In this document: piece after piece, positions 22,901-63,864 of the stretch | How positions within the stretch are numbered: the stretch's first letter is position 1 | Layout: every line of letters starts with the position of its first letter | The notes under the pieces: generated by a model | What the model saw: the letters and a program-made list of their open reading frames with translations, nothing else | What the model was told of the DNA's origin: nothing | Database searches by the model: none | Made by a program: the position numbers and the translations under genes | From: an uncultured Planctomycetia bacterium | GTDB lineage: Bacteria; Omnitrophota; Gorgyraeia; Duberdicusellales; 4484-171 | Reading direction: 5' to 3' | NCBI GenBank assembly: GCA_964483625.1 | Contig: CAZABB010000007.1 | Span: 1-63,864, forward strand | Length of the DNA: 63,864 nucleotides

Positions 22901-23563
22901 ATGATCACAAAGAGTTTCAGCGAACTGAAGAAAAATCTCAAAAAAGATTTCGGCCCCTGCCTGCCGATAAAAGTCGCTCTCCTGGGCGATACGGCAACAC
23001 AGCTTCTGGTCCAGGCCCTAAAAGGCTACGGATACGAAGCAGGTATTTACTTCGACATCTTTGAGTCTGATTACAACCAGATCGAACGTCAGATACTGGA
23101 CCCTTCTTCCGAACTCTACCGGTTTTCTCCGGAATTCGTTATCATTTTTCACTCCTCGCAAAAACTGCTGAATAAATTCTATGCGCTCTCTAAAGACGAA
23201 AAGATCAAATTTGCCGACACCCATCTTGAACTTATCGAGCATCTGTATGAAACCCTGCAAAGACACCTGTCGGGTAAAATCATCTATTTGAACTTCTCCG
23301 AAATATGCGACAGCGTATTCGGTAATTACTGTAACAAAGTCCAGATATCGTTTACGTATCAGTTACGTAAGATCAATTTTGAACTGATGCATCTGAGTCA
23401 AAAATTTAAAAACCTTTTTATTGTCGATATTTCCCTCCTCCACAACCAGTACGGCCGCAACCCCTTCAAGGAATCGCAGCCCTTTCAATTCTCCCCGGAT
23501 AACGGCATTCTGCATCTTCGCCACATCATCCTCATATACGACCTTTTTTGTAGGCAAATATAG
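22901..23563 (+). pseudogene. Truncated N-terminal fragment of an FkbH-like / HAD-IIIC family protein
   Basis: MITKSFSELKKNLKKDFGPCLPIKVALLGDTATQLLVQALKGYGYEAGIYFDIFESDYNQIERQILDPSSELYRFSPEFVIIFHSS... matches the N-terminal domain of ~550-600-aa FkbH-like proteins as I remember them. No HAD domain follows in any plus frame. The last ~200 nt overlap the convergent SGNH-like ORF. This is the only plus-strand coding sequence in the window. Confidence 0.55.
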
Positions 23564-24376
23564 AAAAATCAAAGGAATCTGGTTTTCACGACTGAATGTT
23601 AGAAATTTTTCTAAATACTCACGTGTTACCGCAATTGAACGCATATGTTGTTCTTCCTTTTCCGAAGAAAGACGTGTCTGGGTACGTATAGGCAATGTCT
23701 TATGAGTATAGATATTTCCTACTTTTAACAAACCGGACGGAATTTCTTCCGGGTTTCTCAGATATTGCGTCGTACCTTTCATTACATACTTTATCAGCCG
23801 GTACGTGCAACTATGGATATGCAGAAAATGTCTAAATTCGCCGAACTTTTTGGGATTATCCATCTGTTTGCGTAACCGATTCAAAAAAGGCTTTTTACCC
23901 GACTCCTGATAAATCTGCTCATGCCGTAAATTTTCGCTCAAGATATCATTTTCGGCAACCCGCAGACATATTGCGTAAACCTTTGCGCCAGAATGAATAA
24001 CATAATACTCAAATAACACCCATTCTTCGACCTGAGAACTTCCGCCGAATCCCATATTAACCATCTCGTAATCTCTATGTTTTTTCTGAAGTAATGCTAC
24101 CCACTCTTTTCCCCGCAGGACTTCCGCGCCGCGGACGAAGGAATCGCCCAAGAAAAAAATTGCCGGTTTTTGATGCCCGACGTTATCTATGTTATTAAGC
24201 ACCCGCTTATAGTCATAATAGTGCGCGGTATAATTCCATTGGGGAAAATCAGGCATCGCGGTGGGAACAAGATGAAAGGTAATCTCAATAAGCAGAATAA
24301 TTAACAATACATTGAAGATAATCAGCTTTAACAGCGAAAATATTTTTTTTACCATAAACAATCCTGTTGTTTTCAA
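23363..24376 (-). CDS. Membrane-anchored SGNH/GDSL-like hydrolase or acyltransferase (possibly 3'-truncated)
   Basis: N-terminal TM (LLKLIIFNVLLIILLIEITF). Block I is FFLGDSF, block II GFGGSS, block III VAENDI. I cannot find a block V DxxH motif. The final ~65 codons are antisense to the FkbH-like remnant. Confidence 0.5.
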   Translation of the reverse strand: MKTTGLFMVKKIFSLLKLIIFNVLLIILLIEITFHLVPTAMPDFPQWNYTAHYYDYKRVLNNIDNVGHQKPAIFFLGDSFVRGAEVLRGKEWVALLQKKHRDYEMVNMGFGGSSQVEEWVLFEYYVIHSGAKVYAICLRVAENDILSENLRHEQIYQESGKKPFLNRLRKQMDNPKKFGEFRHFLHIHSCTYRLIKYVMKGTTQYLRNPEEIPSGLLKVGNIYTHKTLPIRTQTRLSSEKEEQHMRSIAVTREYLEKFLTFSRENQIPLIFLYLPTKKVVYEDDVAKMQNAVIRGELKGLRFLEGVAAVLVVEEGNIDNKKVFKFLTQMHQFKIDLT

Positions 24377-25854
24377 CTATCCCAGCAGTAGCGCAAAACA
24401 GTCCCGTAAATACTCCAGAACGGAATAGCAAAATAAGGTAATTCCAGAATAACTTCAAAATTGGCGACAATAAGCCAGTATAACAAAAGCGTACATAATA
24501 AGATCCCCTTGAGATTACGATGCGCCAAAAATTTCCTCACCATACAAATAAATCCGCCCCAGACCGCCAGGATTAACAGGACTCCAACAATACCGGCACG
24601 ATACAACATATGGAGATAGGAATTATGCGGCTCAAGCCACCCGACCCAATTTCCATCTGCCCAGCGAAGAGTTTCGATCGTCCGGGAACGAAACGGTACG
24701 CCAAAATTAACTCCAAATATGTTTCTGTTCTCTAAGAAGTCTAAAAACATATCCCGCCAGACGAATATACGCCACAATACATTGGCATAGGCAGTATGTA
24801 AAGGCCTTGCTTGAGAAACAGGGCTGATTTTACCGTCTTTATTTTCCTCCTTAGGACTCTTTTTCCCAAACATCAAATGAGGCCGCAGCTCGAGCGGCAA
24901 ATAATATAATCTCGTCCTTCTGCTTCCAGATATAACTCTATCCGTATCTGTTTCGGACTTATCTTGATTATTCTGGTCATATACTTTCACAAAGAAGGGC
25001 TTGCCTTGGAAATCGCTCCTGGTATTGATAAATTCAGAAATTTTCTTATATTCCTTTAGATACGGCTCAATTTTAGTGAATGTTTTTATTACCGTCGGAT
25101 CGACCTGCAACGAGAACAAAATCCCCAATGTGACCAAAAGTGAGGCAATCGCCATCTTAAAACGTAACTTTATGTTGAGAAAGTAGCTAAGCCAAATAAA
25201 AAAGAAAAATAAAAGCGCGGCCGCGGCACTAATCAGAATTCCCCGGGTAGAAATATTCAGATAATACATAGCCATGCCGTACACCGCACCGATAATCCCA
25301 CCATATCGGACAACATCATAACGCACCATGGAAAGGATCAGAAAAATAAAGACCATAAAGTTAAAAGTAAAATACGAACTATTCAGATCAAACAAAATAC
25401 TTACGACAAAAAAGAAAAGGAAAAATACCTTCAGTAATCCGTATTGGTCTATGATCTCTTTTCGGGAGAAAGAATATCCCGCCAGAATAAATAAAGGATA
25501 GTAAAAAAGCGCTGAATGACGGAAAGTTAATGGCCCTAATCCCAGATACGCGTATCCCCACCATGCTTTGATGAGAATAAATGCGATATAGCCGACGAGG
25601 CAGAAATGAAACCAGCGAATACGCCGGGCCGAAGATACCCATTGAGGAAGGTATAGAATACTTAGCAGAAAAAAGCAGAAACCCAAAAGCCACTCTCCTA
25701 CAAATACGGGAAAATCTAAAAAAGGCACGAGAACATGGATTTCGGCAAATTGTGACGCAAAAATTGAGTATAATAAGCAGCAGATACCCAGGATAGCTAA
25801 TCCGATGATAGAAATAAGTTGTTCTCGTCCCTCTTGTTTGCCGTTTACGGACAT
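24373..25854 (-). CDS. O-antigen polymerase/ligase family (Wzy_C) membrane protein with large hydrophilic loop
   Basis: About 12 TM helices. A ~150-aa loop is followed by WLEPHNSYLHMLYRAGIVGVLL (Wzy_C motif). The ATG at 25854 (MSVNGKQ) lies 4 nt after the upstream stop; the ORF-track start at 25971 overlaps the GT2 gene. Confidence 0.65.
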   Translation of the reverse strand: MSVNGKQEGREQLISIIGLAILGICCLLYSIFASQFAEIHVLVPFLDFPVFVGEWLLGFCFFLLSILYLPQWVSSARRIRWFHFCLVGYIAFILIKAWWGYAYLGLGPLTFRHSALFYYPLFILAGYSFSRKEIIDQYGLLKVFFLFFFVVSILFDLNSSYFTFNFMVFIFLILSMVRYDVVRYGGIIGAVYGMAMYYLNISTRGILISAAAALLFFFFIWLSYFLNIKLRFKMAIASLLVTLGILFSLQVDPTVIKTFTKIEPYLKEYKKISEFINTRSDFQGKPFFVKVYDQNNQDKSETDTDRVISGSRRTRLYYLPLELRPHLMFGKKSPKEENKDGKISPVSQARPLHTAYANVLWRIFVWRDMFLDFLENRNIFGVNFGVPFRSRTIETLRWADGNWVGWLEPHNSYLHMLYRAGIVGVLLILAVWGGFICMVRKFLAHRNLKGILLCTLLLYWLIVANFEVILELPYFAIPFWSIYGTVLRYCWDS

Positions 25855-25858
25855 AAAA

Positions 25859-26635
25859 TCACCTTTCTCTTGTGCTTCTTGAAAAATATCTTCTTCGCAC
25901 TTGATTAAAATACATCTTCTGCTTTGTAAGATTGATTTTGGATATACACATTGGGTCCTTAACAGAAACATATAGCACCCGGGATAAATACTTTATCCGA
26001 TAGCTGTTTACCATCAGCCGAACGACAAAATCATAATCCTGAGCATACAATAAGGCATCATCATAACCTTGTAATTGTTTCCATACGTTTTTCTTAAAGC
26101 AATAGGTCCCGTGGATAAAGACATTCTTATATTTCATCAAGGCCGGGTACAGGTGTACCGAAAACCAGCGGGGATGAATTGAACCGTCATGTTTAAACCG
26201 CGTACGGCAACAGCAGAAATCATAGCCTTTCTGTAGAAAAGAAATCTGTTCGGCTAAACGGGACCGAACACTTATATCATCGGCATCCTGTCGGGCGATA
26301 CAGCTCCCCCGCGCAACACCAATGGCGCGATTAAGAGATTTAGTCAGGCCCATATTGCTTTGAGAAATAAGACGGATACGGGAATCTTTCCGGCGATATT
26401 GCTCAAGAATCTCTGACGTCGCGTCAGTCGAACCGTCATCGACAATGATAAATTCGAAATCACGAAAGGTCTGATTGAGAACACTTTCAATGCTTTTGTT
26501 CACATAAGGTTGGCCGTTATACACGCTCATGACAACCGATGCCAAAGGAGAAGACTCGCAATCAGCCTGGGAAATTTCAAATGTGCCATAGCCGTCTTTT
26601 TGCGTCATAGGCTTCATCTCATTCATTGCAAACAC
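25859..26635 (-). CDS. Glycosyltransferase family 2
   Basis: ASVVMSVYNGQPYVNKSIESVLNQTFRDFEFIIVDDGSTDAT... and ARQDADDIS (DXD region), the classic GT2 N-terminal domain. Confidence 0.88.
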   Translation of the reverse strand: MFAMNEMKPMTQKDGYGTFEISQADCESSPLASVVMSVYNGQPYVNKSIESVLNQTFRDFEFIIVDDGSTDATSEILEQYRRKDSRIRLISQSNMGLTKSLNRAIGVARGSCIARQDADDISVRSRLAEQISFLQKGYDFCCCRTRFKHDGSIHPRWFSVHLYPALMKYKNVFIHGTYCFKKNVWKQLQGYDDALLYAQDYDFVVRLMVNSYRIKYLSRVLYVSVKDPMCISKINLTKQKMYFNQVRRRYFSRSTRER

Positions 26636-27753
26636 CCGAAAACCGACTTTTCTATATCGGCAACTTTTTGCAAAGAATATTCTTTTGATATTTTTTCAAC
26701 CGCGCGAACCGGCACATCGCGCGAATCCATTTCCTGCATTTTCTTTAGCACAAAAAGAATATCTTGGCTTGCTATGCCTCGAATAAGATATCCATCTTTG
26801 CCGTCCTCGATAATCTCATTTATCCCTGCAGTATCGGTCGCGATACAGATCAAACCACAGGCCATTCCTTCAAGAAGGGTTTTCGGCATCCCTTCATAGC
26901 ACGACGGTAGAATAAAATGCCTGTATCGTCTTAAAATATCCGGCAACGCATTGTTAGGTATGATTCCTTTAAATGAAACGTCCGCTTTTTTTTCCTCTAC
27001 GTACGTTTTAAGATCGTTTTCCAGCTCTCCCCGGCCGTAGATATCCAGTCCCAAGCCCGATCTACTTATCGCGTCGATGAGATTATAAAGATTTTTCTGA
27101 TAGCTTAATCTGCCGACAAAAATAAGACGATCATGGTATTTTTCTTCGCCTCCCGGATAAAACAGCCCGGTATCGATATAATTAGGAAGAACAGTAATTT
27201 TATCCGCGGGAATACGATGTTTTTTCATGAGATATCCCTTCCCGAAATGTGTGGAAATCTCAAGAGCATCGCAATAACAACAGGCTATTTTTTCGATGAG
27301 ATTATACCATCTGACTTTAAGACGAAACCTTGTCTGTCTCTCGATAAAATAACTCAAGACAAATCCACCGCGCACAATGAGCGGTTTCCCATACAGCCAG
27401 CGAGCCAAGACAGCAGCCCAGCTCCCATTGAACTGATTGGTCTTAAAGCCATTAACTTTTTTTAGAACTTTTCTCTGAATAAGAGGGAGCAGAAAAGAAT
27501 ACAACAATTTTCCTAAGGGAAAATTAAATATCCCGGGCATAGGTATCACGCCAATATTTCGAGGGATTTGTTTTTTTTCTTTCAACATTCTCTCATATCT
27601 GCCGTCATCTACGCCATAGGTAAACCAATACACCTCATCCAGAACCTGACGGCGCAGATGTTCCTGGTAAATAAGCTTCTCTCTCTGAATGAGTCCGCTG
27701 TCACACCACACCTTAAGCGACACGCCATAGGTAAAAAACACAGCAAGCTTCAT
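26623..27753 (-). CDS. Glycosyltransferase family 4
   Basis: FVGRLSYQKN...FILPSCYEGMPKTLLEGMACGLICIATDTAGINEIIEDGKDGYL. The ATG at 27753 (MKLAVFFTYG) overlaps the upstream stop as ATGA. Confidence 0.82.
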   Translation of the reverse strand: MKLAVFFTYGVSLKVWCDSGLIQREKLIYQEHLRRQVLDEVYWFTYGVDDGRYERMLKEKKQIPRNIGVIPMPGIFNFPLGKLLYSFLLPLIQRKVLKKVNGFKTNQFNGSWAAVLARWLYGKPLIVRGGFVLSYFIERQTRFRLKVRWYNLIEKIACCYCDALEISTHFGKGYLMKKHRIPADKITVLPNYIDTGLFYPGGEEKYHDRLIFVGRLSYQKNLYNLIDAISRSGLGLDIYGRGELENDLKTYVEEKKADVSFKGIIPNNALPDILRRYRHFILPSCYEGMPKTLLEGMACGLICIATDTAGINEIIEDGKDGYLIRGIASQDILFVLKKMQEMDSRDVPVRAVEKISKEYSLQKVADIEKSVFGCLQ

Positions 27754-28883: not shown

Positions 28884-29858
28884 TTATATATTCCGCCGGC
28901 AGGCCATTTGATCCTGTGTTACCGGATACCCCAATTCACCAAGATCCATATGCAGTTGCGCCCCTAATCGCCCATTACTCGCCGCATAACGGGTTACTAA
29001 TTCCTGATCCTGCCTCAAGAATTGCATATCTAACGTTTTTGCCTTGCAAAAAAGCCTGTTTAACCATCTTGTACTTACTTTTTTAATGCCGTAAAACGTA
29101 TAGCGCAAACGTTGATAAGGATACTCTTCCTTTGTCTCGATCCCTAACGCTTTTAAACTCAACAATAACCGCGCAAATAAAAAATTAACCGGCCGCCAGA
29201 ATCGTAGGACCGGCAACAATTTTGTGCTTTCATTGACGACCTTGCCGCCAGAAGGAGAAACCGGTACTCTTAAAAAAAGAGAGAGTTTCCTGCAGAACTC
29301 ACCAGTATCCTTTTTAAGCAATTCTAACGGCAACACGCACACCGCATCCTTTCCAAATAAGGAGATATAATAAGAAACCAGCTTATCATATTCCAGCTTC
29401 TCCCATAAGCCCAGAGCACCTTCTTCTTCTAAGAATTGAGCGAAACTTCTCGATTCCTCTCCTTTAATCGCGACCCGATAGGTATATATCGACCGGAGAT
29501 ACGAAAATTGATTTCGTACGACAATCAATATTTTTGCCTGCGGGAAAAGCCGGCGTAAATTATCGGCTACCATCATAGGGTTAACCGTCTTATATCCGCA
29601 AGGCATACCGGATAGTTCTTCGTGCGAAAGGACGGTCGCCGGATAAGGATTATTACCGTATTTTCTTCTTATCTCAGCTTCAATCCAATTCTTCACACCT
29701 CGATCGTCACACGTCTCCGACTGGACCATATCCAATACGTGCCGTTTATACCCGGCTAAAAATACATAGTTAGCCTCAATCACCGGAAACACGAATTTCT
29801 GCAGATATGTACTTGCCGCCTTATGATAACCGACATGGATAAAGACCGATCCATTCAT
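28884..29858 (-). CDS. Sulfotransferase-family protein (putative carbohydrate sulfotransferase)
   Basis: N-terminal FIHVGYHKAASTYLQ resembles the 5'-PSB loop (hxxxxKxGTTxLQ). ILIVVRNQFSYLRSIY resembles the 3'-PB strand-helix (xxRNxxxxxxSxY). The size (324 aa) fits. Confidence 0.5.
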   Translation of the reverse strand: MNGSVFIHVGYHKAASTYLQKFVFPVIEANYVFLAGYKRHVLDMVQSETCDDRGVKNWIEAEIRRKYGNNPYPATVLSHEELSGMPCGYKTVNPMMVADNLRRLFPQAKILIVVRNQFSYLRSIYTYRVAIKGEESRSFAQFLEEEGALGLWEKLEYDKLVSYYISLFGKDAVCVLPLELLKKDTGEFCRKLSLFLRVPVSPSGGKVVNESTKLLPVLRFWRPVNFLFARLLLSLKALGIETKEEYPYQRLRYTFYGIKKVSTRWLNRLFCKAKTLDMQFLRQDQELVTRYAASNGRLGAQLHMDLGELGYPVTQDQMACRRNI

Positions 29859-30835
29859 GAATTAACCATTAAACTATTACAGATATCCAGATATCTTCTT
29901 CCCGCATGTTCTATGGAAAACCCGCGGTTTTTTCCCTCTAAACAGGCATATAAATCGCCATAATTCTCGCGAATCTGATCCAGGCTTGTTTTGATATCCG
30001 ATATATCGATACAGACGCCGCAGTTTCCCACAATTTCGGCATTACTACCGCTGGCGACATATAGTACGGGAAGGCCGCTGGAAAGGGCTTCAATGAGCAC
30101 GTTAGAGCAGGCTTCGTGCAAACAGGGGAAAAGAAAAGCATGCGCCTGCTTAAACATCCCGGCTATTTGCTTATGCCCGGCGATGCCATGTAGTTTTACC
30201 CGATGCCGATTGACCTTTTCCGGCCAGCGGCCGATAAAGCTGACTTCTACCCCTTTTAAGAGAGAAAACTCAGCTATCATCCGATGGCCTTTGGAAGGAT
30301 TGAGAGACCAGGAGCAGGCAATAAGTTTAAAGATATCTTTGCCATTCCAAGGAATCTTTCCGTCCATATTAAATATTTTCTGATCGGCGCCATTATGAAT
30401 GAACGTAAAATTGTTCCGATCATATCCCTGTTGCCTAAAAATCTCATGAGCGAATTTACTCTGAAAGATGATATGATCGGCATAGTCGATACACGCAAGC
30501 TGGATATCATCCATCCGACTGCGTTTTCCAGCATATATCGATCTTAAGCCATCCAGACGATAGATAATCTTTAAACGCCGGCGGTTCGGTCCCCTAAATA
30601 TCTTCATCCAAGATGACGAATATCCGAGACGACGAAGGCTGGAAATCTCTTTTATTTTTAACATCTTCCCCGGCGCCTTATACGCCCCATTCAGCAATAA
30701 TATATCGTAGTGAGAATTCGCATCAAAGGTAACCTCAACTCCTTGCGTAAGAAAAAAATCCTTAAGATTGGCGATAAATGAATTACTCCCTCCCCAGGGT
30801 TTATTGATTGTCCTATAGTAAAGACATACTTTCAT
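29855..30835 (-). CDS. Glycosyltransferase, GT4-like (GT-B)
   Basis: C-terminal FLFPCLHEACSNVLIEALSSGLPVLYVASGSNAEIVGNCG. The N-terminal Rossmann starts MKVCLYY...WGGSNSF. Confidence 0.68.
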   Translation of the reverse strand: MKVCLYYRTINKPWGGSNSFIANLKDFFLTQGVEVTFDANSHYDILLLNGAYKAPGKMLKIKEISSLRRLGYSSSWMKIFRGPNRRRLKIIYRLDGLRSIYAGKRSRMDDIQLACIDYADHIIFQSKFAHEIFRQQGYDRNNFTFIHNGADQKIFNMDGKIPWNGKDIFKLIACSWSLNPSKGHRMIAEFSLLKGVEVSFIGRWPEKVNRHRVKLHGIAGHKQIAGMFKQAHAFLFPCLHEACSNVLIEALSSGLPVLYVASGSNAEIVGNCGVCIDISDIKTSLDQIRENYGDLYACLEGKNRGFSIEHAGRRYLDICNSLMVNS

Positions 30836-37342: not shown

Positions 37343-37355
37343 CCGTATCCTTTCT

Positions 37356-38856: not shown

Positions 38857-38885
38857 GCCACAAACTCCTTATTAATCTTTTTTAC

Positions 38886-39737: not shown

Positions 39738-39758
39738 ATCCCTCCTTCTAAGAATCGG

Positions 39759-52541: not shown

Positions 52542-52548
52542 CTGCTCT

Positions 52549-53133
52549 TTATCTTTTGCCAGCCTCTCTCTCAGACTCATATTCATCAATTAAGGAAAAT
52601 TCACCTCTCAATAACGACATGTACACAAGATGATGGTACCCCCCCTGAGACCAGATTCTTTCCTTTAATGTCCCCTCTTTCTTCCAGCCCAATTTCTCTA
52701 CGCAACGAATAAAAGCAGGATTGATCGAACCCGCATATACCTTATTAAGATTCATGTTCATAAACGCGTGTTTTGTTATGTGGTATATTGCTTCCGCGGC
52801 ATACTCTTTTCCCCAATATTCTTTCCTGCCGATAAGAACACTAATCTCGGCACACCGATTTACCTCTTCAATATTCACTAAAGCGACATTGCCTATATGC
52901 ATCTCATCTTTTCTGACTATGACAGCTAGAATAACACCTTCCTGTGGATGATCACAATAATATTTAATGTACTGTGTCATCTGAGAGCAATTTGTGGGTT
53001 TTCTCCGGCGCTGGGAGTAACGGTTTACTTCAGGATCGTTTAACCAGGATAAATACTCATAAGTAAACTCTTTATCGGACAACGGACGCAGGTAAATACG
53101 TTTTCCGGATAAAAACACAATTTTCTTTTTCAT
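52549..53133 (-). CDS. GNAT-family N-acetyltransferase (RimJ/RimL-like; PseH-type candidate)
   Basis: 194 aa with IYLRPLSDKEFTYEYLSWLNDPEVNRY and IGRKEYWGKEYAAEAIYHITKHAF. Confidence 0.75.
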   Translation of the reverse strand: MKKKIVFLSGKRIYLRPLSDKEFTYEYLSWLNDPEVNRYSQRRRKPTNCSQMTQYIKYYCDHPQEGVILAVIVRKDEMHIGNVALVNIEEVNRCAEISVLIGRKEYWGKEYAAEAIYHITKHAFMNMNLNKVYAGSINPAFIRCVEKLGWKKEGTLKERIWSQGGYHHLVYMSLLRGEFSLIDEYESEREAGKR

Positions 53134-55990: not shown

Positions 55991-56897
55991 ATTTATTTTC
56001 CTTAAGAGCCATCACATCAATATAAGGCACCCGGGGATATAATACGCTTTCTTTACGGGCAACATGCAATTCAATACCGGCCGGTTTTAAGACAAAATCA
56101 TTGAACGCATGAACGGTTACATCAAATGGATGTTTATTTTTCGTAGGGTACATCCCTCCGTACAGTTGTTTTCTTCTTTTTTCTTTAGGAGCGTGTTTGA
56201 TTTCGTTTACGGCCCACTGAGCCTCTTCGTAATCTTCATAAAACGCCACACCATGATTCATCTCGCAACCCAACAGGATGATTCTCTTATATCTCATTTC
56301 GAATGCTACATAAAGCATCTCGTTGAGAGTGCCACGGTACATATAACGCCCTTTAAAGTCGTCGGCACGAAAACAACGCGTTGCCGGACAATTTACGAAT
56401 TTCGGGTATTTGTAACGACAGACAGTCGAATCTGGCGAAAACCACTCCGGAATAAGGCAGGGTCGCATCCCTCTCTTCCAGGCCCGATCAGAAACCATTT
56501 GGACCGTATTCCGATAGTCCCACCTTCTCTTTTTAAACAATTCGGTCTGTCTCCTTCCTACGGAAGGATCACGGTTATATTCAAAATGGAAATAGGTCGG
56601 GACAAACTGATGGTACAAAAAATAGTTAAACGCCAGGCTGTCAAAACTACGTACAACGTCCCATTCTGCTTCTGTGACTTTTTTAATCAAACTGCCGCAG
56701 CCAAGAATAAAAAGCGTATCACTTTTCTTTTTGATTCTTTCTTCTTCAATATTTATCACCTTGACCATTTTGCGGCAATTCTTACAATAAAGGAAAGGCC
56801 ATTTATACAGATTGACATACGTAATCGGGATAAATACTCGATATATCCAGACAAACAATTTTTTTATTTTAATACCGACGGCTTTTATTAATTTCAT
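55968..56897 (-). CDS. Hypothetical; GT42 (CstII-like)/DUF115-like candidate nonulosonate transferase
   Basis: 309 aa. TLFILGCGSLIKKV...FDSLAFNYFLY parallels the GNGPSL...FRCNQFYF start of CstII/Maf-type proteins. The later LNEMLYVAFEMRYKRIILLGCEM parallels ITSGVYMCAVAIALGYKEIYLSGIDF. It sits directly upstream of the neuA-like gene. Confidence 0.4.
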   Translation of the reverse strand: MKLIKAVGIKIKKLFVWIYRVFIPITYVNLYKWPFLYCKNCRKMVKVINIEEERIKKKSDTLFILGCGSLIKKVTEAEWDVVRSFDSLAFNYFLYHQFVPTYFHFEYNRDPSVGRRQTELFKKRRWDYRNTVQMVSDRAWKRGMRPCLIPEWFSPDSTVCRYKYPKFVNCPATRCFRADDFKGRYMYRGTLNEMLYVAFEMRYKRIILLGCEMNHGVAFYEDYEEAQWAVNEIKHAPKEKRRKQLYGGMYPTKNKHPFDVTVHAFNDFVLKPAGIELHVARKESVLYPRVPYIDVMALKENKYGGHILT

Positions 56898-57535
56898 TCT
56901 CCACCTGTACTCTTTAATATTTCTTCCGCAAGCCAGAAATCAAATTCTTCATCGATTTCAATATTGTATTTCCTATCAAGCAAAACCTGCTCTATCCTCT
57001 TTCCATACCGGTCGCCTTTTCGTATTACATCAGCTTTTATAACATATACGTTGCCGTCATCGTAAAAAAAACCTTGCATGTCCTGCCGCCGCTTGTTATT
57101 ACTGGCATACGGAGCATATTTACACATAAAACCCGTAGCCAACGAATCGGCTCCTGTCTCGATAAACTTTTTTATACATTCATCTATGAGGCCGGCATAG
57201 CGCATAGGAGATGTCGCCTGCAGTAATACGACGATATCGGCGCTGATATGTTCAAGCACATGCTGTAATACAGCCAATGTCGATGTTTCATCCTGTGCCA
57301 GCTCATAAGGCCGTGCAAGGACCTTAGCTGAATACTTTTCAGCCACTGCGGCAATCTCTGAATCTTCGGTCGAAATAATATATTCATCCAGCAATTTTGA
57401 ATTCCGGGCGGATTCAATAGTCCAGGCAATCAACGGTTTTCCCGCTAATTCCTTAATATTCTTACGCGGAATACCTTTACTGCCTCCCCTCACCGGGGTT
57501 ACTCCTAAAATTTTCCCCTCTATACCATATCCCAT
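56894..57535 (-). CDS. Acylneuraminate (nonulosonate) cytidylyltransferase, NeuA/PseF/LegF type
   Basis: ILGVTPVRGGSKGIPRKNIKELAGKPLIAWTIESA is the canonical CMP-NulO synthetase N-terminus. 213 aa. Confidence 0.82.
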   Translation of the reverse strand: MGYGIEGKILGVTPVRGGSKGIPRKNIKELAGKPLIAWTIESARNSKLLDEYIISTEDSEIAAVAEKYSAKVLARPYELAQDETSTLAVLQHVLEHISADIVVLLQATSPMRYAGLIDECIKKFIETGADSLATGFMCKYAPYASNNKRRQDMQGFFYDDGNVYVIKADVIRKGDRYGKRIEQVLLDRKYNIEIDEEFDFWLAEEILKSTGGE

Positions 57536-58584
57536 GTTAAGACCTCATCTTCTTTAATATCACGTTTTGCTTTCTTACCGACAATCTCCTCTAAACACCG
57601 CGGCGCAATACCCGTTGCCGGACGTTTCACTATAATCATTTCTTTGGTAATCATCGTTTCTTTGCCGATATCTTTTTTAGCAACAAGGCTCCTTCTTGCC
57701 CACCGCCGCGCTTTTTCCTCACAGGCTAAAGGAACTTTCGCACTCGATCCCAATACCCGACCGACAGTATCAAATCCCTTCATCAGACGATTGAGATCGT
57801 CATAATCGGCGGAAATCGCATGATCATACCCCGGCCGCGTTTTATCGAACGTGAAATGTTTTTCAATAACTTTCGCCCCCAGCGCGACAGCCGCAATAAG
57901 TACACTGTTTGAAACAGAATCAAGCGTATGATCGGAATATCCCACCGGGTACTGCGGGAATGTTTCCATCAGGTGCTTCATCATATTCAGATTCACATCT
58001 TGCACCTGAGTGGGGTAATTTGTCACACAATGAAGAATCGCAATCTGTCCGTTTCCTTGTGATTCAAGGATACCGACCGCCTCCTTAATCTCTTCCATTG
58101 ACGCAGCACCGGTAGAAATAATCACCGGCTTGTTTTTCGCCGCCACATGCCGCAAAAGAGGCAGATGGGTAATATCCATGGAACTTATTTTATAAAGAGG
58201 CACATCAAGTTTCTCAAGCATATCGGCTGAATCCTCATCGGAAGGAGTGGAAAAAAAGATAATCCCCTCATCATCGGCAATTTTCTTCAAATACCGGTAT
58301 TCATCGAATTTTAAAAGCGGGGTCTGGCTAAACTCCTCATACTGCGTCTGACCGGGACATCCCTCGATATCCCAGAATTTAGGTGCCGTGCGAGTAACGA
58401 TTTTTTCAGGAACAAATGTCTGGAATTTGACCGCGTCCGCCCCCTCCTTTGCCGCGATACGAATCATCTCCTCAGCTCGCGACACGTCTCCCTCAAAATT
58501 GCACCCGATCTCTAAAATAAAAAACGGCTTCCCCTTTCCTCCAATTACTTTCCTGCCGATTTCTATCTGTTTAAACGTATTCAT
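57520..58584 (-). CDS. Nonulosonate synthase, NeuB/PseI/LegI family (second copy)
   Basis: PFFILEIGCNFEGD, KFQTF, IISTGA, CVTNYPT, YSDHTLD, and a C-terminal SAF domain (MIIVKRPATG). Confidence 0.85.
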   Translation of the reverse strand: MNTFKQIEIGRKVIGGKGKPFFILEIGCNFEGDVSRAEEMIRIAAKEGADAVKFQTFVPEKIVTRTAPKFWDIEGCPGQTQYEEFSQTPLLKFDEYRYLKKIADDEGIIFFSTPSDEDSADMLEKLDVPLYKISSMDITHLPLLRHVAAKNKPVIISTGAASMEEIKEAVGILESQGNGQIAILHCVTNYPTQVQDVNLNMMKHLMETFPQYPVGYSDHTLDSVSNSVLIAAVALGAKVIEKHFTFDKTRPGYDHAISADYDDLNRLMKGFDTVGRVLGSSAKVPLACEEKARRWARRSLVAKKDIGKETMITKEMIIVKRPATGIAPRCLEEIVGKKAKRDIKEDEVLTWDMV

Positions 58585-58589: not shown

Positions 58590-59315
58590 TTATACTTTCT
58601 TCAAAGCAATACCCTCTTGAGAAGGTAAATTTTGCCCTTCGGTAATAATCCTCAAACTCTCCTGTCCGTGATTAAACAGCACATCAAGCACCGACATCGC
58701 CGGAACAAAGTCACCATGAAGCTGGGAATGCTGAGGATATCGGTAATCGTGAAAGGTAACGTTAATTTTTTTTCCTTTCCACGTTTTCAAATCAAGATAA
58801 TCCCTGCCGGCCGGGCCGGAAAGATACTCATCCGCTTTAACATCTGTACAGATATTTACTAACAATTCTTCTTTTTTCCCTGCTGCCTTTAACTCCGACG
58901 CCTTTTTTACGGGCGTATCAACTTTGATGCTCTCAAGAAGGTAACATAACGATGCTTCAATAAGATCCACCAGGTACGTCCATTCTGTCTGATACATCTT
59001 TTCAAAAAACCCGGCATAATCGGAAAAATAAGGCGCTTTTTTGTACGCATGATAAATACTCTGCCAGTGATCGTTTCTCCAATTGATGGCGTTATTAATA
59101 TGTACATCTTTGATCAACTGACCAAAATTACCTTTCATAAGCACAGGAACGGTAAGCCAAATCCAACCTCCCGCCGTCTTGATTTTATTACGGTTAATAA
59201 GATAATTTTTTGAATACGCCACGTTATCCAGTAAGACAAACTGATCACACCGGGAAATCCGGTCGAACAACCCGGCCCACGGTAAATACATCGGCTGATG
59301 AATCCCTATCCGCAT
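58590..59315 (-). CDS. WbqC-family protein
   Basis: MRIGIHQPMYLPWAGLFDRISRCDQFVLLDNVAY... matches my memory of the WbqC-like family N-terminus (HQP.ylPw.G.f.ki). The family has no established function. Confidence 0.6.
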   Translation of the reverse strand: MRIGIHQPMYLPWAGLFDRISRCDQFVLLDNVAYSKNYLINRNKIKTAGGWIWLTVPVLMKGNFGQLIKDVHINNAINWRNDHWQSIYHAYKKAPYFSDYAGFFEKMYQTEWTYLVDLIEASLCYLLESIKVDTPVKKASELKAAGKKEELLVNICTDVKADEYLSGPAGRDYLDLKTWKGKKINVTFHDYRYPQHSQLHGDFVPAMSVLDVLFNHGQESLRIITEGQNLPSQEGIALKKV

Positions 59316-60415
59316 AACACCTCTTTCAAACTGTTTACGACATATTCGGCATCTTCATCGGTAATGAACGGATGAATCGGCAAAGTGATTTGCTGTTTTA
59401 ACACCTTTTCGGCAACCGGGAAATCGCCTTCACGATGCCCGAATAAATCCCGGTATACCGGTTGTAAATGGCAAACCGGCCAATATACGCTTTCAAGCTC
59501 AATGTTATGTGTATTTCTAAACTCATTTTTAAACCGGCCGGCATCGATTGTACTATCCAGCTGGACAGGAAATTTATAATAACTGGGAACGGAACCGGTA
59601 GAAACCGGTAACACTCTAATTTCCTTGACGGCTTTTAACAATTCGCAATATTTATGTGCGATATGTTTACGCGTATCGAGCATAGATTCAAGATCCCGCA
59701 ATTGATACAATCCCACTGCAGCCCGAATCTCATCCATAAACCAGTCATTCCCTATATGAATAATTTCAGACATCGCCCGGCCCCGGCCATGGCATCTCAC
59801 GCTCTGGGCAAATTCATAAAGGTCATCGGAATCGGTCGTAATCATCCCGCCGGTACCCGTCGTCATTATTTTGGTAGGATAGAAAGAAAAACATCCCGCA
59901 TATCCCCATTTTCCGGCTTTGGTATCTTTAAAACTGGCGCCAACCGCGTGAGCGCAATCTTCAATAAGAACAATTCCCTTTTGCGTACAGAGCTTTTTCA
60001 AATACTCGATATCATCTGAGATTATCCCGGCGATATGAGTAATAATGACTGCCTTTGTTTTAGGGGTTATCTTTTTTTCGACTTCGGTAACATCAAGATT
60101 ATACGTACCTCCCTTGATATCAGACAATACCGGACGGCCGCCGGCAAACAGGACCGCGTTTCCGGTCGCGATAAACGTATTGGTAGAGATGATGACTTCT
60201 CTGTCTTTTACATCTAAAAACCGCAATACGATCTCTAAAGCCGTCGTACAGGAATTTACCGATAGAGCGTATTTTGTACCGGTATAAGCGGAAAATTCTT
60301 TCTCAAAATTTTCGGTCATCTCCCCGCCCATAAGCCTGCCTGAATCTAATATCTCGGCAAGTTTTCCCAGAATTTCGCTTTTATTTCGGAAAAACGGCCG
60401 TGCTACTTGAATCAT
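59306..60415 (-). CDS. DegT/DnrJ/EryC1-family aminotransferase (PseC/LegC-like)
   Basis: 369 aa with FEKEFSAYTGTKYALSVNSCTTAL, REVIISTNTF, and FSFYPTKIMTTGTGG (PLP Lys). Confidence 0.85.
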   Translation of the reverse strand: MIQVARPFFRNKSEILGKLAEILDSGRLMGGEMTENFEKEFSAYTGTKYALSVNSCTTALEIVLRFLDVKDREVIISTNTFIATGNAVLFAGGRPVLSDIKGGTYNLDVTEVEKKITPKTKAVIITHIAGIISDDIEYLKKLCTQKGIVLIEDCAHAVGASFKDTKAGKWGYAGCFSFYPTKIMTTGTGGMITTDSDDLYEFAQSVRCHGRGRAMSEIIHIGNDWFMDEIRAAVGLYQLRDLESMLDTRKHIAHKYCELLKAVKEIRVLPVSTGSVPSYYKFPVQLDSTIDAGRFKNEFRNTHNIELESVYWPVCHLQPVYRDLFGHREGDFPVAEKVLKQQITLPIHPFITDEDAEYVVNSLKEVLCG

Positions 60416-61337
60416 ACATTTTCTCCTGAACTTCTTTTATGTATTTTGTCAATGCCTCATCGAAAGGATACAGGCGCAAATCCCCTATTTTTTCTTTAAG
60501 TTTATCCACCGCAAGCCATCGATCGACAGGCTTACTGTTTCCTGAAGTATCTACGATTTCAACTTCCCGGCCATATACCCGTTGAAAAACATCCCGCACA
60601 TTACAGGCTAAAGAACGAATACTTTGCGGCCGGCCGCTTCCTATATTCAAAATATTATTTTCTCTATTCTGCCGCCGCAGAAGCTCTAACATAATCCGGC
60701 ATACATCATCGATAAAAATAAAATCGAGCTTCTGTTCTCCTCCACCCTGCAATATGAGAGGTTTACCTTCAAACGCAGATTTTATAAAATGGAAAATGAC
60801 TTCCTCCGGGTTTATCCCGCTTCCGAAACCAAAAATGTTGGCGAAACGTAAAATCGTATAATTCATATCGCAGGAGATGATCTCCTGCTCCGAAAGTGCC
60901 TTCGACCAGCCATATATCTCCTGCGGCGCAAGCACCATATCTTCATGAAACGACAACCGGCCTTCTGTCTGACCGTACGCCCAATAGGTCGAGGCAAACA
61001 GAATTTCTTTAACCGAATGGCGCTTGGCATATTCAAGCAAAAGATGGGTCCCCCATACATTTGTCGCGATGACATCTCTTACTTTATCGGCACACTGCCC
61101 GGCTCCTTTGATCGCGGCAAGATGGATAATCGTATCTACTCCTTCCAAGGATTCCTCAAGCACCTTGCTATCAGTCATGTCCCCTTCGATAAACGTTACC
61201 CCAGGCCAATCCTGCCGGAGAAAATTTTCGGGACAAGAAGGATAGACCAGCGCGTTTATCTGAAAATCATTTTGAAGATACTTAAGTAGAGTACTGCCCA
61301 GATATCCGTTGGCGCCGGTAAGAAAAATTCTCTTCAT
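60381..61337 (-). CDS. NAD-dependent epimerase/dehydratase (extended SDR)
   Basis: MKRIFLTGANGYLGSTL (GxxGxxG) and catalytic YGWSKALSE (YxxxK). 318 aa. Confidence 0.82.
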   Translation of the reverse strand: MKRIFLTGANGYLGSTLLKYLQNDFQINALVYPSCPENFLRQDWPGVTFIEGDMTDSKVLEESLEGVDTIIHLAAIKGAGQCADKVRDVIATNVWGTHLLLEYAKRHSVKEILFASTYWAYGQTEGRLSFHEDMVLAPQEIYGWSKALSEQEIISCDMNYTILRFANIFGFGSGINPEEVIFHFIKSAFEGKPLILQGGGEQKLDFIFIDDVCRIMLELLRRQNRENNILNIGSGRPQSIRSLACNVRDVFQRVYGREVEIVDTSGNSKPVDRWLAVDKLKEKIGDLRLYPFDEALTKYIKEVQEKMYDSSSTAVFPK

Positions 61338-62464
61338 GAAACTGATACCTTTTGTGCTTTCTTTTTTACCAATATATCCATAATACGCCCGGCAACTCTT
61401 TCTGTTCCCAGCCCGTCAACGAGCTTCTTCCCATGAATACTCAACTCAGACCGTGTGCTGTCTGAAAGAAGAACTTCACCTGTTTTTCCCGCGATATATT
61501 CACAGGAGACATCCGTTCCTATCCCCAGATTCACTGCCGCCTGGTTCTGGACGAACTGCCGGGCAACAAGATCATGATCTTTATGGTGACACAGGATAAG
61601 CGAAGGAACTCCGAAACAGGCAAGTTCATAGAGGGTATTGCCCGCGGCGGTAATAGCAAGATCACTCTTTGCCATCAATTGATACATCTTATTTTTTGAA
61701 ACATTCCATTGAAACTGATAGTCACCTTTTAAAGACGGTATTATCTCTTGCAACTCTTTTTTGTGCGCTTGCAAGAAACCTCCTCCTACCACGACAATAA
61801 CTTTTTGGTCAAGGTTTAACGTTTCCAGAGCCTGAATCGTTTTCATTGTCAATTTATACGGATCGGTACCCCCTTGTGTTACCAGTATCTGAGCACATTG
61901 AGGAGGAATTTTTTTTACCTGTTTCCACACCCCATGTAACTGAGCGTCAAGAAGTGCGTATTTCGGGCCGATCACGTATCTCTCTTTTTGCGAAAACTTA
62001 TCATAAAACTTCTTATCCTGGCCAATGTGAAAATTAACGGCAAGATCAGCCGGGATTTCCGAATGTATCGTATCGTCAAATAAAACAACATAGGCAAATT
62101 TTCGATTTTGCCATTGCCTCATATATGAATCATCGATGACAATCGCTCCGTTATCGACACGATTTAGCCGCAACAGATCAACGATGAAAACATCTGGATT
62201 AAAATCGGCGATAGCGGTCTCGGTAAAAAGAATTTCATCATGCATACTATTTGTTCCCGAGACAAACTGAACGTTATATCCGGCACCACGAATACATTTG
62301 ACCCCGGGATGATAATCCCTTGTTAAAAACAGAATCTCCACATCAACCTTTTCTTGAAGACTATCCAGCAAAGAAAGACACTCACCGACATGCCCCATGC
62401 CGATACGGTTGCCTGAATCAACGCGTACTAAAATCTTGCATTTCTTCTCTTTGTTCATTGCCAT
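61334..62464 (-). CDS. PseG-like UDP-sugar hydrolase / GT28-C-terminal-domain protein
   Basis: KILVRVDSGNRIGMGHVGECLSLLDSL resembles the PseG N-terminus (R.D....G.GH..RC..LA). The C-terminal half has AITAAGNTLYELACFGVPSL. Confidence 0.55.
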   Translation of the reverse strand: MAMNKEKKCKILVRVDSGNRIGMGHVGECLSLLDSLQEKVDVEILFLTRDYHPGVKCIRGAGYNVQFVSGTNSMHDEILFTETAIADFNPDVFIVDLLRLNRVDNGAIVIDDSYMRQWQNRKFAYVVLFDDTIHSEIPADLAVNFHIGQDKKFYDKFSQKERYVIGPKYALLDAQLHGVWKQVKKIPPQCAQILVTQGGTDPYKLTMKTIQALETLNLDQKVIVVVGGGFLQAHKKELQEIIPSLKGDYQFQWNVSKNKMYQLMAKSDLAITAAGNTLYELACFGVPSLILCHHKDHDLVARQFVQNQAAVNLGIGTDVSCEYIAGKTGEVLLSDSTRSELSIHGKKLVDGLGTERVAGRIMDILVKKKAQKVSVS

Positions 62465-63120
62465 TTCTCTCTCATCGTCATAAATGCTTCCGCCACTTTA
62501 AGCCCGATTTCTGTGCCCCGTTTTTCTGAAAGCGCGATGATCGCTTTTTCCGAACGGGGATGGGGAAATGTCTTAAACTCATCCTCATAACACCGCATTG
62601 CTTCGATTTTCTGTTTCAGGTACGGTTCGATATCGACATAAAAATTCGGCAAAAACGCAAGTTCCCTAAACGGTGGTATTTGATCGGTGGACGAAAGCAC
62701 CTCATAACTCATCACTTTCTTAAGCGCAGGATTGGCAAAGGTGCGACAGGCGATGATGCCTGCGTTAAACGCCGCTTTATGATCCTGGTTGGTATCACCG
62801 GCATGGTTTAAATAGACGACTTCAGGTACGACTTTTTTAAATACCTCTTCTAACGGCACCAGTATATCTATAGTACGGGCATCTAGTTGTTCATCTTTGA
62901 GGTTAAGAAATATTGCCTCTTGATATCCTAAAATATCTTTTGCACCGAGCGCGCCGTTTTTTTGACGTTGAATACGTTTTTCATCATAGGTATGGTTATA
63001 AGCGCGGTTAGCCAGCATACATACCGTTACCGCATCGTTTTGACGGACGTGCTTAACGATAGTACCGCCCATACCCAATACTTCATCATCCATGTGTGCC
63101 GAAATAACCAATACCCTCAT
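62455..63120 (-). CDS. PIG-L/LmbE-family N-deacetylase
   Basis: MRVLVISAHMDDEVLGMGGTI (AHxDDE zinc motif) and later NQDHKA. 221 aa. Confidence 0.78.
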   Translation of the reverse strand: MRVLVISAHMDDEVLGMGGTIVKHVRQNDAVTVCMLANRAYNHTYDEKRIQRQKNGALGAKDILGYQEAIFLNLKDEQLDARTIDILVPLEEVFKKVVPEVVYLNHAGDTNQDHKAAFNAGIIACRTFANPALKKVMSYEVLSSTDQIPPFRELAFLPNFYVDIEPYLKQKIEAMRCYEDEFKTFPHPRSEKAIIALSEKRGTEIGLKVAEAFMTMREKWQ

Positions 63121-63864
63121 GCCTTCACTCCCGGCCGGGCATCCATATGTTCGACATCCAGCTTTTGATCGGCATAAACGTTCATATGAATTTTTTTATC
63201 TTTCACCTGTACGACTTCCTCCCTGGTAATTCCGCCGTCACAACATATCTGACAGGGTTTAAGATAAAGCCTTTGTTTGTTCTTCATCAGACGGCGCAAG
63301 CGCACAAAAGCCTCACCCCTCCATATCTGCCGCAAAGAATTCTCATTTACGTCACCCAGGATGTTCCCTTCGAGATAATCGCTGTGACACTGGGAAACTC
63401 TACCATCCCACATAACACACATTCTCTGCCAGGGTGATTGGCAGATATAAGAAGGATCGTGTTTGAAATCTCTTTGCTGATCGGATCGTATTTGATCGGC
63501 GATAAACGAAATTTTATCGGCGATGGGTTTAAAAAAATCAAGATACTCACCGGGATTATCTTTTATTGCCGACCATATCGATTGGACACGAATGAGTGGC
63601 TTCGATAATCCCTGTCGGTTACGAGAATCACGAATATATTTTATGTTTTCTATCACCTTTTCAAACCTTGCCGGATAACGGATACGTTCGTAAATCTCTC
63701 CTAACCCGTCAAACGAAATACTGATCCAGTCAAGGCCGGCATTGATCAATTGATCAATCAACTCAAAATTCAACCGTTCACCGTTCGTCAAAAAAGCCAC
63801 ATCCTTAATCCCCTTTTCTTTGGCATAACGCACCATATCCACAATGCGCGGATTAAGAAGCGGC
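63117..63864 (-). CDS. Radical SAM/SPASM-type enzyme, C-terminal part (5' end beyond the right edge)
   Basis: The frame stays open upstream of the listed GTG: ...PLLNPRIVDMVRYAKEKG, which is the GEPLL region of a radical SAM core. The C-terminal Cys-rich domain is CQSPWQRMCVMWDGRVSQCHSDYLEGNILGDVNENSLRQIW...CQICC. The CX3CX2C motif must lie outside the window. Confidence 0.7.
   Translation of the reverse strand, partial: PLLNPRIVDMVRYAKEKGIKDVAFLTNGERLNFELIDQLINAGLDWISISFDGLGEIYERIRYPARFEKVIENIKYIRDSRNRQGLSKPLIRVQSIWSAIKDNPGEYLDFFKPIADKISFIADQIRSDQQRDFKHDPSYICQSPWQRMCVMWDGRVSQCHSDYLEGNILGDVNENSLRQIWRGEAFVRLRRLMKNKQRLYLKPCQICCDGGITREEVVQVKDKKIHMNVYADQKLDVEHMDARPGVKA

Follow-up and report, generated by a model that had tools for sequence, protein, structure and literature searches.

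The window analysed here is a complete metagenomic contig of 63,864 bp (CAZABB010000007.1, from an uncultivated bacterium of the Omnitrophota), the right part of which, from position 23363 to its end, is occupied by a block of tightly packed genes for a predicted glycan containing nonulosonic acids (NulOs), the sialic-acid-like sugars. The listing of open reading frames (ORFs) gives 38 complete genes between 23363 and 63842, plus one truncated at its 5' side by the right end of the contig, all on the minus strand, in agreement with an earlier sequence-only reading of this DNA in which 38 back-to-back minus-strand genes were counted from 23363. When the longest ORFs are taken, genes are never more than 45 nt apart (maximum at 28838/28884), and a 4-nt start/stop overlap is permitted by an in-frame ATGA at 10 of the 38 junctions and by TTGA at one of the 38, which confirms the gaps of at most 45 bp and the ten ATGA-type overlaps reported at that time; the coding fraction of the block reaches 99.5%. 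Pfam, scored against gathering cutoffs, was run on 58 ORFs of the contig, and NCBIfam was scored against equivalog cutoffs. Nearly every call of the previous motif-based gene content passed Pfam, with the third sulfotransferase, one Wzy_C protein and the PseG-like hydrolase remaining sub-threshold.

The presence of two NeuB-family synthases, each with a SAF domain, three CTP_transf_3 cytidylyltransferases and a NeuC epimerase scoring above its cutoff identifies the block as a NulO locus. The two synthases are 37% identical to one another, and each is accompanied by a hydrolase and a cytidylyltransferase of its own, which upholds the two nonulosonate routes proposed earlier. NeuC is the sole NulO-pathway enzyme above its NCBIfam equivalog cutoff. 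For the canonical pseudaminic acid (Pse) pathway, the models of PseB (43 bits for a cutoff of 408), PseC (236-249/424), PseG (142.5/153.6), PseI (280 for NeuB-1 and 250 for NeuB-2, cutoff 340) and PseF (128/206) all score below cutoff and no match to PseH was found. For the legionaminic acid (Leg) pathway, NeuC/LegG passes while NeuB_NnaB (351 for NeuB-1 and 377 for NeuB-2, cutoff 400, in both cases above PseI), LegB (78/475), LegC (196-228/420) and PtmA (104/350) do not. The candidate 4,6-dehydratase scores far below the cutoffs of dTDP-glucose 4,6-dehydratase (103 bits), LegB (78 bits) and PseB (43 bits). A protein identical to NeuB-1 was found on a 3.9-kb Logan contig (L001), and the same exact-protein look-up returned no identical leucyl-tRNA synthetase (LeuRS) or transketolase.

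Three sub-modules may be distinguished in the block from right to left (63842-55968, 55990-47476 and 47456-37356, hereafter modules 1 to 3), and module 3, with the ATP-binding cassette (ABC) exporter gene that follows it, has counterparts elsewhere. A Logan contig of 10.7 kb (L084, GC 0.38) carries 11 genes collinear with 35546-47456 at 44-76% amino-acid identity, in the shared order orphan-orphan-aldehyde dehydrogenase (ALDH)-transketolase (TK)-NeuB-NeuC-short-chain dehydrogenase/reductase (SDR)-cytidylyltransferase-sulfotransferase-ABC exporter. ALDH is 73% identical there and 58% identical on a JGI contig (L085), with the transketolase always adjacent; in L085, two family 4 glycosyltransferase (GT4) genes matching those at 31828 and 29855 are followed by ALDH, TK and NeuB. 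TK itself, a thiamine diphosphate (ThDP) enzyme with the motif GDG..N at residue 167, has four closest homologues at 54-66% identity which stand apart from the bulk of its family (48% at most), and the two closest whose contigs were read (66% and 54%) both show the order ALDH-TK-NeuB. The gene at the position of sulfotransferase 1 in L084 is 63% identical to it. The contexts in L084 and L085 therefore show TK, ALDH and at least one sulfotransferase to be conserved in a NulO cassette rather than neighbours by accident. Nor is this contig alone in having the combination, as the core cassette including the sulfotransferase recurs in L084. Two other contigs, L086 and L089, have the GT-B orphan described below, a ThDP enzyme and cytidylyltransferase genes in common with the block, L086 also having NeuB, while L089 carries all three orphan families within 8 kb and a transketolase-like fragment about 4 kb further. 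ThDP chemistry thus seems to recur in predicted NulO loci that contain the GT-B orphan. In L086 (GCA_002753255.1, PDZZ01000112.1, 1698-3734), a split E1-type ThDP enzyme (E1_dh and Transket_pyr/C) replaces the fused transketolase, and the same locus also has a Zn-dependent alcohol dehydrogenase (Zn-ADH) and a HldE-like kinase/cytidylyltransferase.

The three orphan families are found almost only in predicted NulO loci. Pfam at E <= 5 added nothing for ten unexplained ORFs of the contig, and four orphans compared with the sequences of the PDB gave chance matches only. The GT-B orphan of module 3 has 15 homologues among 5.8e9 proteins; its AlphaFold2 (AF2) model (pLDDT 87.6) matches GT-B folds with E of about 1e-5, and of the 16 longer related loci nearly all have a member of its family adjoining CTP_transf_3 genes, usually accompanied by NeuB/NeuC and an ABC exporter, the neighbouring cytidylyltransferase being in most of them of the same divergent type as in module 3. 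Its fold and context make it a candidate NulO transferase. The 290-aa orphan upstream has 57 representatives among 1.84e9 proteins, and its homologues in L084 (51%) and L089 (48%) adjoin the other orphans; a putative ParB/Srx-like GRHR motif was noticed by eye in its sequence. The 309-aa orphan closing module 1 has 3 homologues among 5.8e9 proteins, and both of those whose context was read (L082, L083) lie in NeuB/CTP_transf_3/ABC loci. Its AF2 model (pLDDT 73.5) best matches an MptE-like HPPK protein (8sd5), a Maf glycosyltransferase (5mu5) and two sialyltransferases (6apl and 5bo7), the latter being animal enzymes, so that it is regarded as a candidate Maf/sialyltransferase-like NulO transferase. 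A likeness to CstII (GT42) guessed by eye for this protein was unconfirmed by sequence, the Maf/sialyltransferase-like suggestion coming from the fold search alone.

Regarding tailoring and export, the block encodes two firm predicted sulfotransferases dependent on 3'-phosphoadenosine 5'-phosphosulfate (PAPS) and a borderline third one with HKAASTYL and VRNQ..S motifs; PAPS-binding-type motifs (5'-PSB and 3'-PB) can be read by eye in all three. The radical S-adenosylmethionine (SAM) enzymes have CxxxCxxC together with a SPASM or B12-binding domain (CPFSCAYC at residue 203 in the B12-binding enzyme, for which no close relative was found in JGI metagenomes), the CxxxCxxC of the gene truncated by the contig end falling beyond that end. 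The ABC protein, which has both a transmembrane domain (TMD) and a nucleotide-binding domain, scores 327 bits with the HepA family, 290 with MsbA and 253 with PglK, all below cutoffs, and ABC_membrane is sub-threshold (23.7 for 28). Its start was set at 37342 through the alignment with L084. A 13-bp hairpin at 37294-37266, considered as a terminator after sulfotransferase 1, was rejected, being part of the ABC coding sequence, where it specifies the conserved segment IFWRVARW.

Features of the contig in order of decreasing position, with the family matches on which their assignment is based (scores in bits)
Feature	Position	Strand	Basis
Radical SAM/SPASM enzyme, 5'-truncated by contig end	63117-63842	minus	SPASM 47; Radical_SAM 44, profile positions 68-139 only
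PIG-L family N-deacetylase	62455-63120	minus	PF02585 68.4 (> 28.2); BshB1-like 70, below cutoff
PseG-like nucleotide-sugar hydrolase (GT28-like)	61334-62464	minus	TIGR03590 142.5, cutoff 153.6; weak LpxB, Glyco_tran_28_C
NAD-dependent SDR epimerase/dehydratase, candidate 4,6-dehydratase	60381-61337	minus	PF01370 145
DegT aminotransferase, PseC/LegC-like	59306-60415	minus	PF01041 344; PseC 236, LegC 196, below cutoffs
WbqC-like protein	58590-59315	minus	PF08889 252
NeuB-family NulO synthase 1 (NeuB-1)	57520-58584	minus	NeuB 274 + SAF
PseF-like CMP-NulO synthetase-like cytidylyltransferase	56894-57535	minus	CTP_transf_3 90; PseF 128, cutoff 206
Orphan, 309 aa, candidate NulO transferase	55968-56897	minus	no Pfam/NCBIfam match
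B12-binding radical SAM enzyme, KedN5-like C-methyltransferase	53957-55990	minus	B12-binding 44, Radical_SAM 47; NF033712 186, below cutoff
SAM methyltransferase, CmoB-like	53152-53967	minus	Methyltransf_9/23
GNAT N-acyltransferase	52549-53133	minus	Acetyltransf_3 73
Third cytidylyltransferase, KdsB-like	51792-52589	minus	CTP_transf_3 98; KdsB subfamilies about 74, below cutoffs
GFO/IDH/MocA sugar oxidoreductase	50764-51795	minus	Pfam; UDP-GlcNAc 3-dehydrogenase-like 70
Candidate NulO transferase, distant BFO_1060-family glycosyltransferase	49611-50780	minus	NF046086 35, E 6.7e-9, cutoff 200
Second DegT aminotransferase	48341-49639	minus	DegT 320; PseC 249, LegC 228, below cutoffs
GNAT acyltransferase, 190-aa N-terminal extension	47476-48369	minus	Acetyltransf_1 66, residues 195-282
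Orphan, 290 aa, conserved-cassette member	46584-47456	minus	no family match at E <= 5
Orphan with GT-B fold, candidate NulO transferase	45401-46591	minus	fold match and context
ALDH	43960-45408	minus	PF00171 550; KGSADH-like 524, below cutoff
Single-chain transketolase-family ThDP enzyme (TK)	41984-43942	minus	N, pyr and C domains; NF004559 445, cutoff 488
NeuB-family NulO synthase 2 (NeuB-2), probable start 41984	40950-42026	minus	NeuB 270 + SAF
NeuC/LegG-type hydrolysing UDP-sugar 2-epimerase	39759-40922	minus	Epimerase_2 246; TIGR03568 398 (> 236)
SDR oxidoreductase, PRK09186/PtmA-like	38886-39737	minus	adh_short_C2 151; PtmA 104, cutoff 350
Divergent CTP_transf_3 cytidylyltransferase	38179-38856	minus	43 (> 22.6)
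Sulfotransferase 1	37356-38267	minus	Sulfotransfer_1 71; KRCGTSWL and RQPVDRAYS motifs
ABC half-transporter, HepA/MsbA/PglK type, candidate lipid-linked-glycan flippase	35546-37342	minus	ABC_tran 110
Sulfotransferase 2	34692-35549	minus	Sulfotransfer_3 66, Sulfotransfer_1 48; QRSGTTLL motif
SAM methyltransferase	33727-34695	minus	Methyltransf_31/11/25
Radical SAM/SPASM enzyme	32717-33721	minus	Radical_SAM 73, SPASM 55; CNLNCPYC at residue 34
GT4	31828-32772	minus	Pfam
Weak GT4-like	30837-31823	minus	profile search
GT4	29855-30835	minus	Pfam
Third, sulfotransferase-like gene	28884-29858	minus	sub-threshold in three sulfotransferase families (25.6/27, 22.2/22.8, 20.4/22)
Orphan, 362 aa	27750-28838	minus	no family assignment
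GT4	26623-27753	minus	Pfam
Family 2 glycosyltransferase (GT2)	25859-26626	minus	Pfam
Polytopic Wzy_C-family protein, polymerase or ligase-like	24373-25971 (alternatively 24373-25854)	minus	Wzy_C 31.4, cutoff 31.7, E 2e-7
Membrane-anchored SGNH/GDSL-like protein, probably 3'-truncated	23363-24376	minus	Lipase_GDSL_3 23.7, cutoff 27, profile positions 3-79/178
Truncated FkbH_N gene fragment	22820-23563	plus	PF21211 222, profile positions 1-165/192
Sigma-70-like match before GT4 21578-22705, in 622-nt gap	22769-22741	minus	TTGGCA-17-TATTAT and TG extension, 10/12
GT4	21578-22705	minus	
AsnB-type amidotransferase	19686-21575	minus	asn_synth_AEB 479 (> 267)
Zn-ADH+GFO fusion	17533-19689	minus	
Orphan, 400 aa	16377-17579	minus	weak GH88/pectate-lyase-like matches
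Sigma-70-like match before WecG	16137-16110	minus	10/12
WecG/TagA glycosyltransferase	15304-16077	minus	TIGR00696 172 (> 69)
Polyprenyl glycosylphosphotransferase (initiating phosphoglycosyl transferase)	13895-15307	minus	TIGR03025 430 (> 296)
VanZ	13296-13883	minus	
ComEC-type metallo-beta-lactamase (MBL) protein	12430-13293	minus	TIGR00361 146, positions 422-663
O-antigen-ligase/O-oligosaccharyltransferase-like Wzy_C protein	11204-12433	minus	Wzy_C 78, cutoff 31.7
NodU-like carbamoyltransferase	9359-11173	minus	
Sigma-70-like match before tRNAs	5153-5125	minus	10/12

Position 23363 had been proposed as the limit of the locus, and this had to be abandoned, as ten additional glycan genes were recognised by Pfam/NCBIfam downstream at 9359-22741. 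The junction between both parts is the 622-nt gap 22741-23363, in which sits the FkbH_N fragment, the sole plus-strand coding remnant of the contig; its ORF terminates in unrelated sequence past profile position 165 and overlaps the last 200 nt (3' end) of the SGNH-like gene, in which block I (FFLGDSF) could be recognised but no DxxH block. This arrangement looks like a deletion/recombination scar at the border of the low-GC block, by which two convergent genes were cut. The GC content at third codon positions is 0.44 in the block, 0.49 in 9359-22741 and 0.51 in the housekeeping genes, and this low value fits a mobile, horizontally exchanged glycan island. The minus strand carries all 57 genes of the contig, the housekeeping ones included, and both tRNAs, so that co-orientation is not peculiar to the block; all 2-kb windows show negative GC skew along the contig, which is either entirely leading strand or subject to a strong coding-strand purine bias.

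For 3000-22999, each of the three best sigma-70-like matches on the minus strand (10/12) is located in one of the three large intergenic gaps, which together make up about 10% of that region, and because of this coincidence the sigma-70 consensus seems to be in use here. The downstream glycan genes would accordingly seem to form at least two further transcription units. Within 23363-63864, promoter-like matches are at or below the shuffle expectation (34 for 41±6 and 27 for 45±8) and hairpins resembling terminators are about as frequent as expected by chance. The simplest reading of the block, and a plausible one, is a single long operon whose promoter would lie past the contig end.

Below 9359, the contig encodes a CHASE2-HD protein, two tRNAs, an AP endonuclease, LeuRS, ComEA and ComEC. 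Among the matches listed, the best for LeuRS is 56% identical and comes from an Omnitrophota metagenome-assembled genome, the order AP endonuclease-LeuRS being common to both. The CHASE2 sensor is fused to a HD_5/HD-GYP-type domain (5272-7659, minus); its gene follows the last ORF of the glycan locus (8947-9396) at a distance of about 1.3 kb, and it could be a regulator of surface-glycan production. The tRNA-Leu(CAA) and tRNA-Ala(GGC) genes (4848-4934 and 4974-5048, minus) lie in the 768-nt gap between CHASE2-HD and AP endonuclease-LeuRS. At 7790-8533 (minus), a pseudopilin-like protein shows a prepilin-type N-terminus (FTLLEMMV...) and a very acidic repetitive tail, DDNDYDYPGDNDYDYPDDDDDD, with no Pfam match; it may serve as a target of glycosylation, or else hint at PVC/Omnitrophota affiliation. 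The ORF 8241-8687 was judged spurious owing to its 293-nt overlap with this gene and its lack of family match. The stand-alone MBL protein corresponds to the C-terminal domain of ComEC, the N-terminal part of ComEC being encoded separately at 1-864 (minus). The weak matches of the 400-aa orphan suggest a fold of the (alpha/alpha)6 type, and this protein and the 362-aa orphan may be glycan-modifying lyases or epimerases.

Taken together, these features are probably those of a gene island for surface-glycan biosynthesis that covers at least 54 kb (from 9359 to beyond 63864) and has the block as its largest unit, in which sialic-acid-like sugars would be incorporated by a lipid-linked route into a glycan that is probably both sulfated and methylated. 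Next to the observed gene content, packing and module 3 conservation, we infer substrates, order of steps, product and acceptor as follows. At the precursor stage, each of the three modules would lead to a CMP-activated ulosonic sugar and provide its own candidate transferase: module 1 by means of PIG-L, the PseG-like hydrolase, SDR, DegT, WbqC, NeuB-1, the PseF-like enzyme and the Maf/sialyltransferase-like orphan; module 2 through the B12 radical-SAM enzyme, SAM methyltransferase, GNAT, KdsB-like enzyme, GFO oxidoreductase, BFO_1060-like glycosyltransferase, DegT and second GNAT; and module 3 through its 290-aa and GT-B orphans, ALDH, TK, NeuB-2, NeuC, the PtmA-like SDR, cytidylyltransferase and sulfotransferase. 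Assembly on polyprenyl phosphate would be started by the initiating transferase and extended by WecG, the GT4 and GT2 enzymes and the NulO transferases, with cytoplasmic tailoring by the three predicted PAPS-type sulfotransferases, the methyltransferases, the carbamoyltransferase and N-deacetylation/re-acylation. The HepA/MsbA/PglK-type half-transporter would then flip the glycan, and the two Wzy_C proteins would either polymerise it or join it to an acceptor, be it lipid, protein or another. In the least certain step, TK and ALDH would supply or remodel a short hydroxy-carbonyl unit, either an acyl donor of the glycolyl/glyceroyl type or an unusual aldose used by NeuB-2. The occurrence of N-glycolyl and N-glyceroyl groups on NulOs of bacteria (PMC5420450) makes the hydroxy-acyl donor attractive.

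Concerning export, the earlier statement that Wzx, Wzz/Wzc, Wza and PAPS-synthesis genes are missing is upheld by Pfam for the 58 ORFs scanned. For a Wzx/Wzy-dependent pathway, there is neither Wzx nor Wzz/Wzc, and the two Wzy_C proteins score 31.4 and 78 bits for a cutoff of 31.7. For a route by ABC flippase, the contig has an initiating transferase above its cutoff and an ABC half-transporter with fused TMD, the predicted flippase. Export had been left unexplained in the earlier reading, and this can largely be revised: because the initiating transferase, the ABC flippase and both Wzy_C proteins form a complete predicted lipid-linked route, Wzx, Wza and Wzc would not be needed.

Several observations weigh against this overall reading. 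No PAPS-synthesis gene is found among the contig ORFs, and no acyl-activating enzyme or carrier protein lies beside TK and ALDH, which leaves the proposed acyl-donor pathway incomplete. No Pse, Leg or Neu identity can be assigned to the sugars, as only NeuC reaches its equivalog cutoff, and the assignments conflict, a PseG-like hydrolase being found beside a NeuB/LegI-like synthase with neither PseB nor PseH present as an equivalog. For the 309-aa orphan, TM scores of the fold matches are low (0.3-0.5), and these matches come from a 4-sequence alignment. Two 10/12 promoter-like matches are located in minus-strand coding sequence (60127-60098 and 54400-54371), so that internal promoters are possible. 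The full cassette including the sulfotransferase is present on just one other contig (L084), and on other contigs the modules are combined differently, for which reason the island may serve more than one glycan.

This last point also speaks for an alternative, in which the block would be a mosaic of neighbouring glycan systems used independently of each other and merely co-oriented, for example an O-glycosylation system for a protein (pilin, flagellin or S-layer) next to an exopolysaccharide (EPS)/O-antigen locus, each NulO module having its own target. Modules are indeed separate or recombined in L082, L083, L086, L087 and L089-L094, co-orientation alone says little on a contig with minus-strand genes only, and the numbers of cytidylyltransferases (three), candidate NulO transferases (three) and Wzy_C proteins (two) would suit several products. 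The Maf-like fold and the BFO_1060-like glycosyltransferase point to protein glycosylation, for which the pseudopilin-like gene could provide an acceptor. On the other hand, there is no space between the modules, with gaps of 45 nt at most and overlaps at many junctions, the block has one ABC exporter and the contig one initiating transferase, and no match to flagellin, Maf (PF01973) or a PglB/PglL equivalog was found on the contig. We regard the mosaic as unlikely.

Very improbable is a further alternative, an ordinary Leg/Pse O-antigen cluster with TK and ALDH as chance central-metabolism genes and the orphans as filler: TK does belong to a large family of single-chain transketolases of about 640 aa, many at about 45% identity and named transketolase, and ALDH scores best against generic semialdehyde dehydrogenases, but the separation of the four closest TK homologues from the bulk and the ALDH-TK-NeuB order on both contigs read, the other ThDP enzymes adjoining the GT-B orphan in L086 and L089, and the conservation of the orphans in NulO loci at 28-51% identity, one of them with a confident GT-B model, all argue against it.

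Within the favoured reading, a single lipid-linked island, a more specific and rather doubtful proposal is that the module 3 cassette and the ABC exporter make and export an undescribed NulO derivative, sulfated or with a ThDP-derived hydroxy-acyl or extended carbon unit, which would be installed by new families of NulO transferases (the GT-B and the Maf-like orphans), the family of the 290-aa orphan being a third new component. The related contigs L084, L085, L086 and L089 are short and uncharacterised, and none spans modules 1 and 2. In line with the earlier reading, no characterised counterpart of the locus was found: the equivalog models of the NulO pathway fail apart from NeuC, a comparison of the 8-kb core with plasmid DNA gave no match, and a full-text literature search found nothing relevant for loci combining NulO with a sulfotransferase, or NulO/Leg/Pse with a transketolase, nor for Omnitrophota and NulO.

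If true, this proposal would give a genetic handle on the reported co-occurrence of sialylation and sulfation in environmental biofilm matrices (PMC10483923). For granular sludges from the environment, that study reports sialic-acid-like sugars and sulfate as common components of the extracellular matrix, finds few sulfotransferase genes in relatives of the dominant organisms, and states that little is known of how bacteria make sulfated glycoconjugates (PMC10483923). The present contig and L084 place a sulfotransferase inside a conserved NulO cassette and thereby offer concrete candidates for expression. NulO transferases are described as a poorly known enzyme class (PMC5420450), and the three tiny protein families almost confined to NulO loci may be new members of it. 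The link of the TK/ALDH pair with a NeuB synthase is conserved as well.

Among known systems, the Campylobacter jejuni flagellin glycosylation locus resembles the block by its two NeuB synthases, NeuC/LegG epimerase, PseG-like hydrolase, DegT, GNAT, PtmA-like SDR and CMP-transferases, and the predicted fold of one orphan recalls its Maf transferases. The Campylobacter jejuni gene set comprises the Pse and Leg pathways, ptm genes and Maf transferases. In contrast, no PseB, PseH, PseI, LegB or LegC equivalog, no PF01973 Maf and no flagellin were found here, while sulfotransferases, radical-SAM enzymes, TK/ALDH, an ABC flippase, Wzy_C proteins and many glycosyltransferases are added. Because of these additions, what is made would be an oligo- or polysaccharide linked to lipid, in contrast to single sugars put directly on flagellin. 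As in the en-bloc pathway of Campylobacter pgl (PglC, PglK), a phosphoglycosyl transferase is combined with an MsbA/PglK-like ABC half-transporter in place of Wzx; unlike pgl, there is no PglB, the PglK score is 253 for a cutoff of 1000, and the ABC protein matches best with the HepA family of cyanobacteria.

The sulfated EPS synechan of Synechocystis depends on Wzx/Wzy with Wzc/Wza-type export and is not known to involve NulO genes, whereas here an ABC flippase is the predicted exporter and NulO pathways dominate. Like the present block, its xss cluster encodes its own sulfotransferases (PMC8205485). In Tannerella forsythia, general protein O-glycosylation places a terminal Pse5Am7Gra or Leg derivative on a complex, methylated oligosaccharide, i.e. 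a NulO with an unusual hydroxy-acyl N-substituent and with a dedicated transferase encoded in the locus (PMC5420450). BFO_1060 is aligned in the same paper as the FDC 92A2 homologue of Tanf_01245, the Pse/Leg-derivative transferase, and the glycosyltransferase of module 2 is a distant relative of the BFO_1060 family, far below its cutoff. The parts read of that paper, which concerns another taxon, report no sulfation, ThDP or radical-SAM enzymes. Since large idiosyncratic glycan islands are common in uncultivated bacteria and the parts described here come from known enzyme superfamilies, the locus is an unusual form of a familiar and ordinary kind of system, of interest mainly for the conserved TK/ALDH-NeuB-sulfotransferase-ABC cassette and for the three orphan families.

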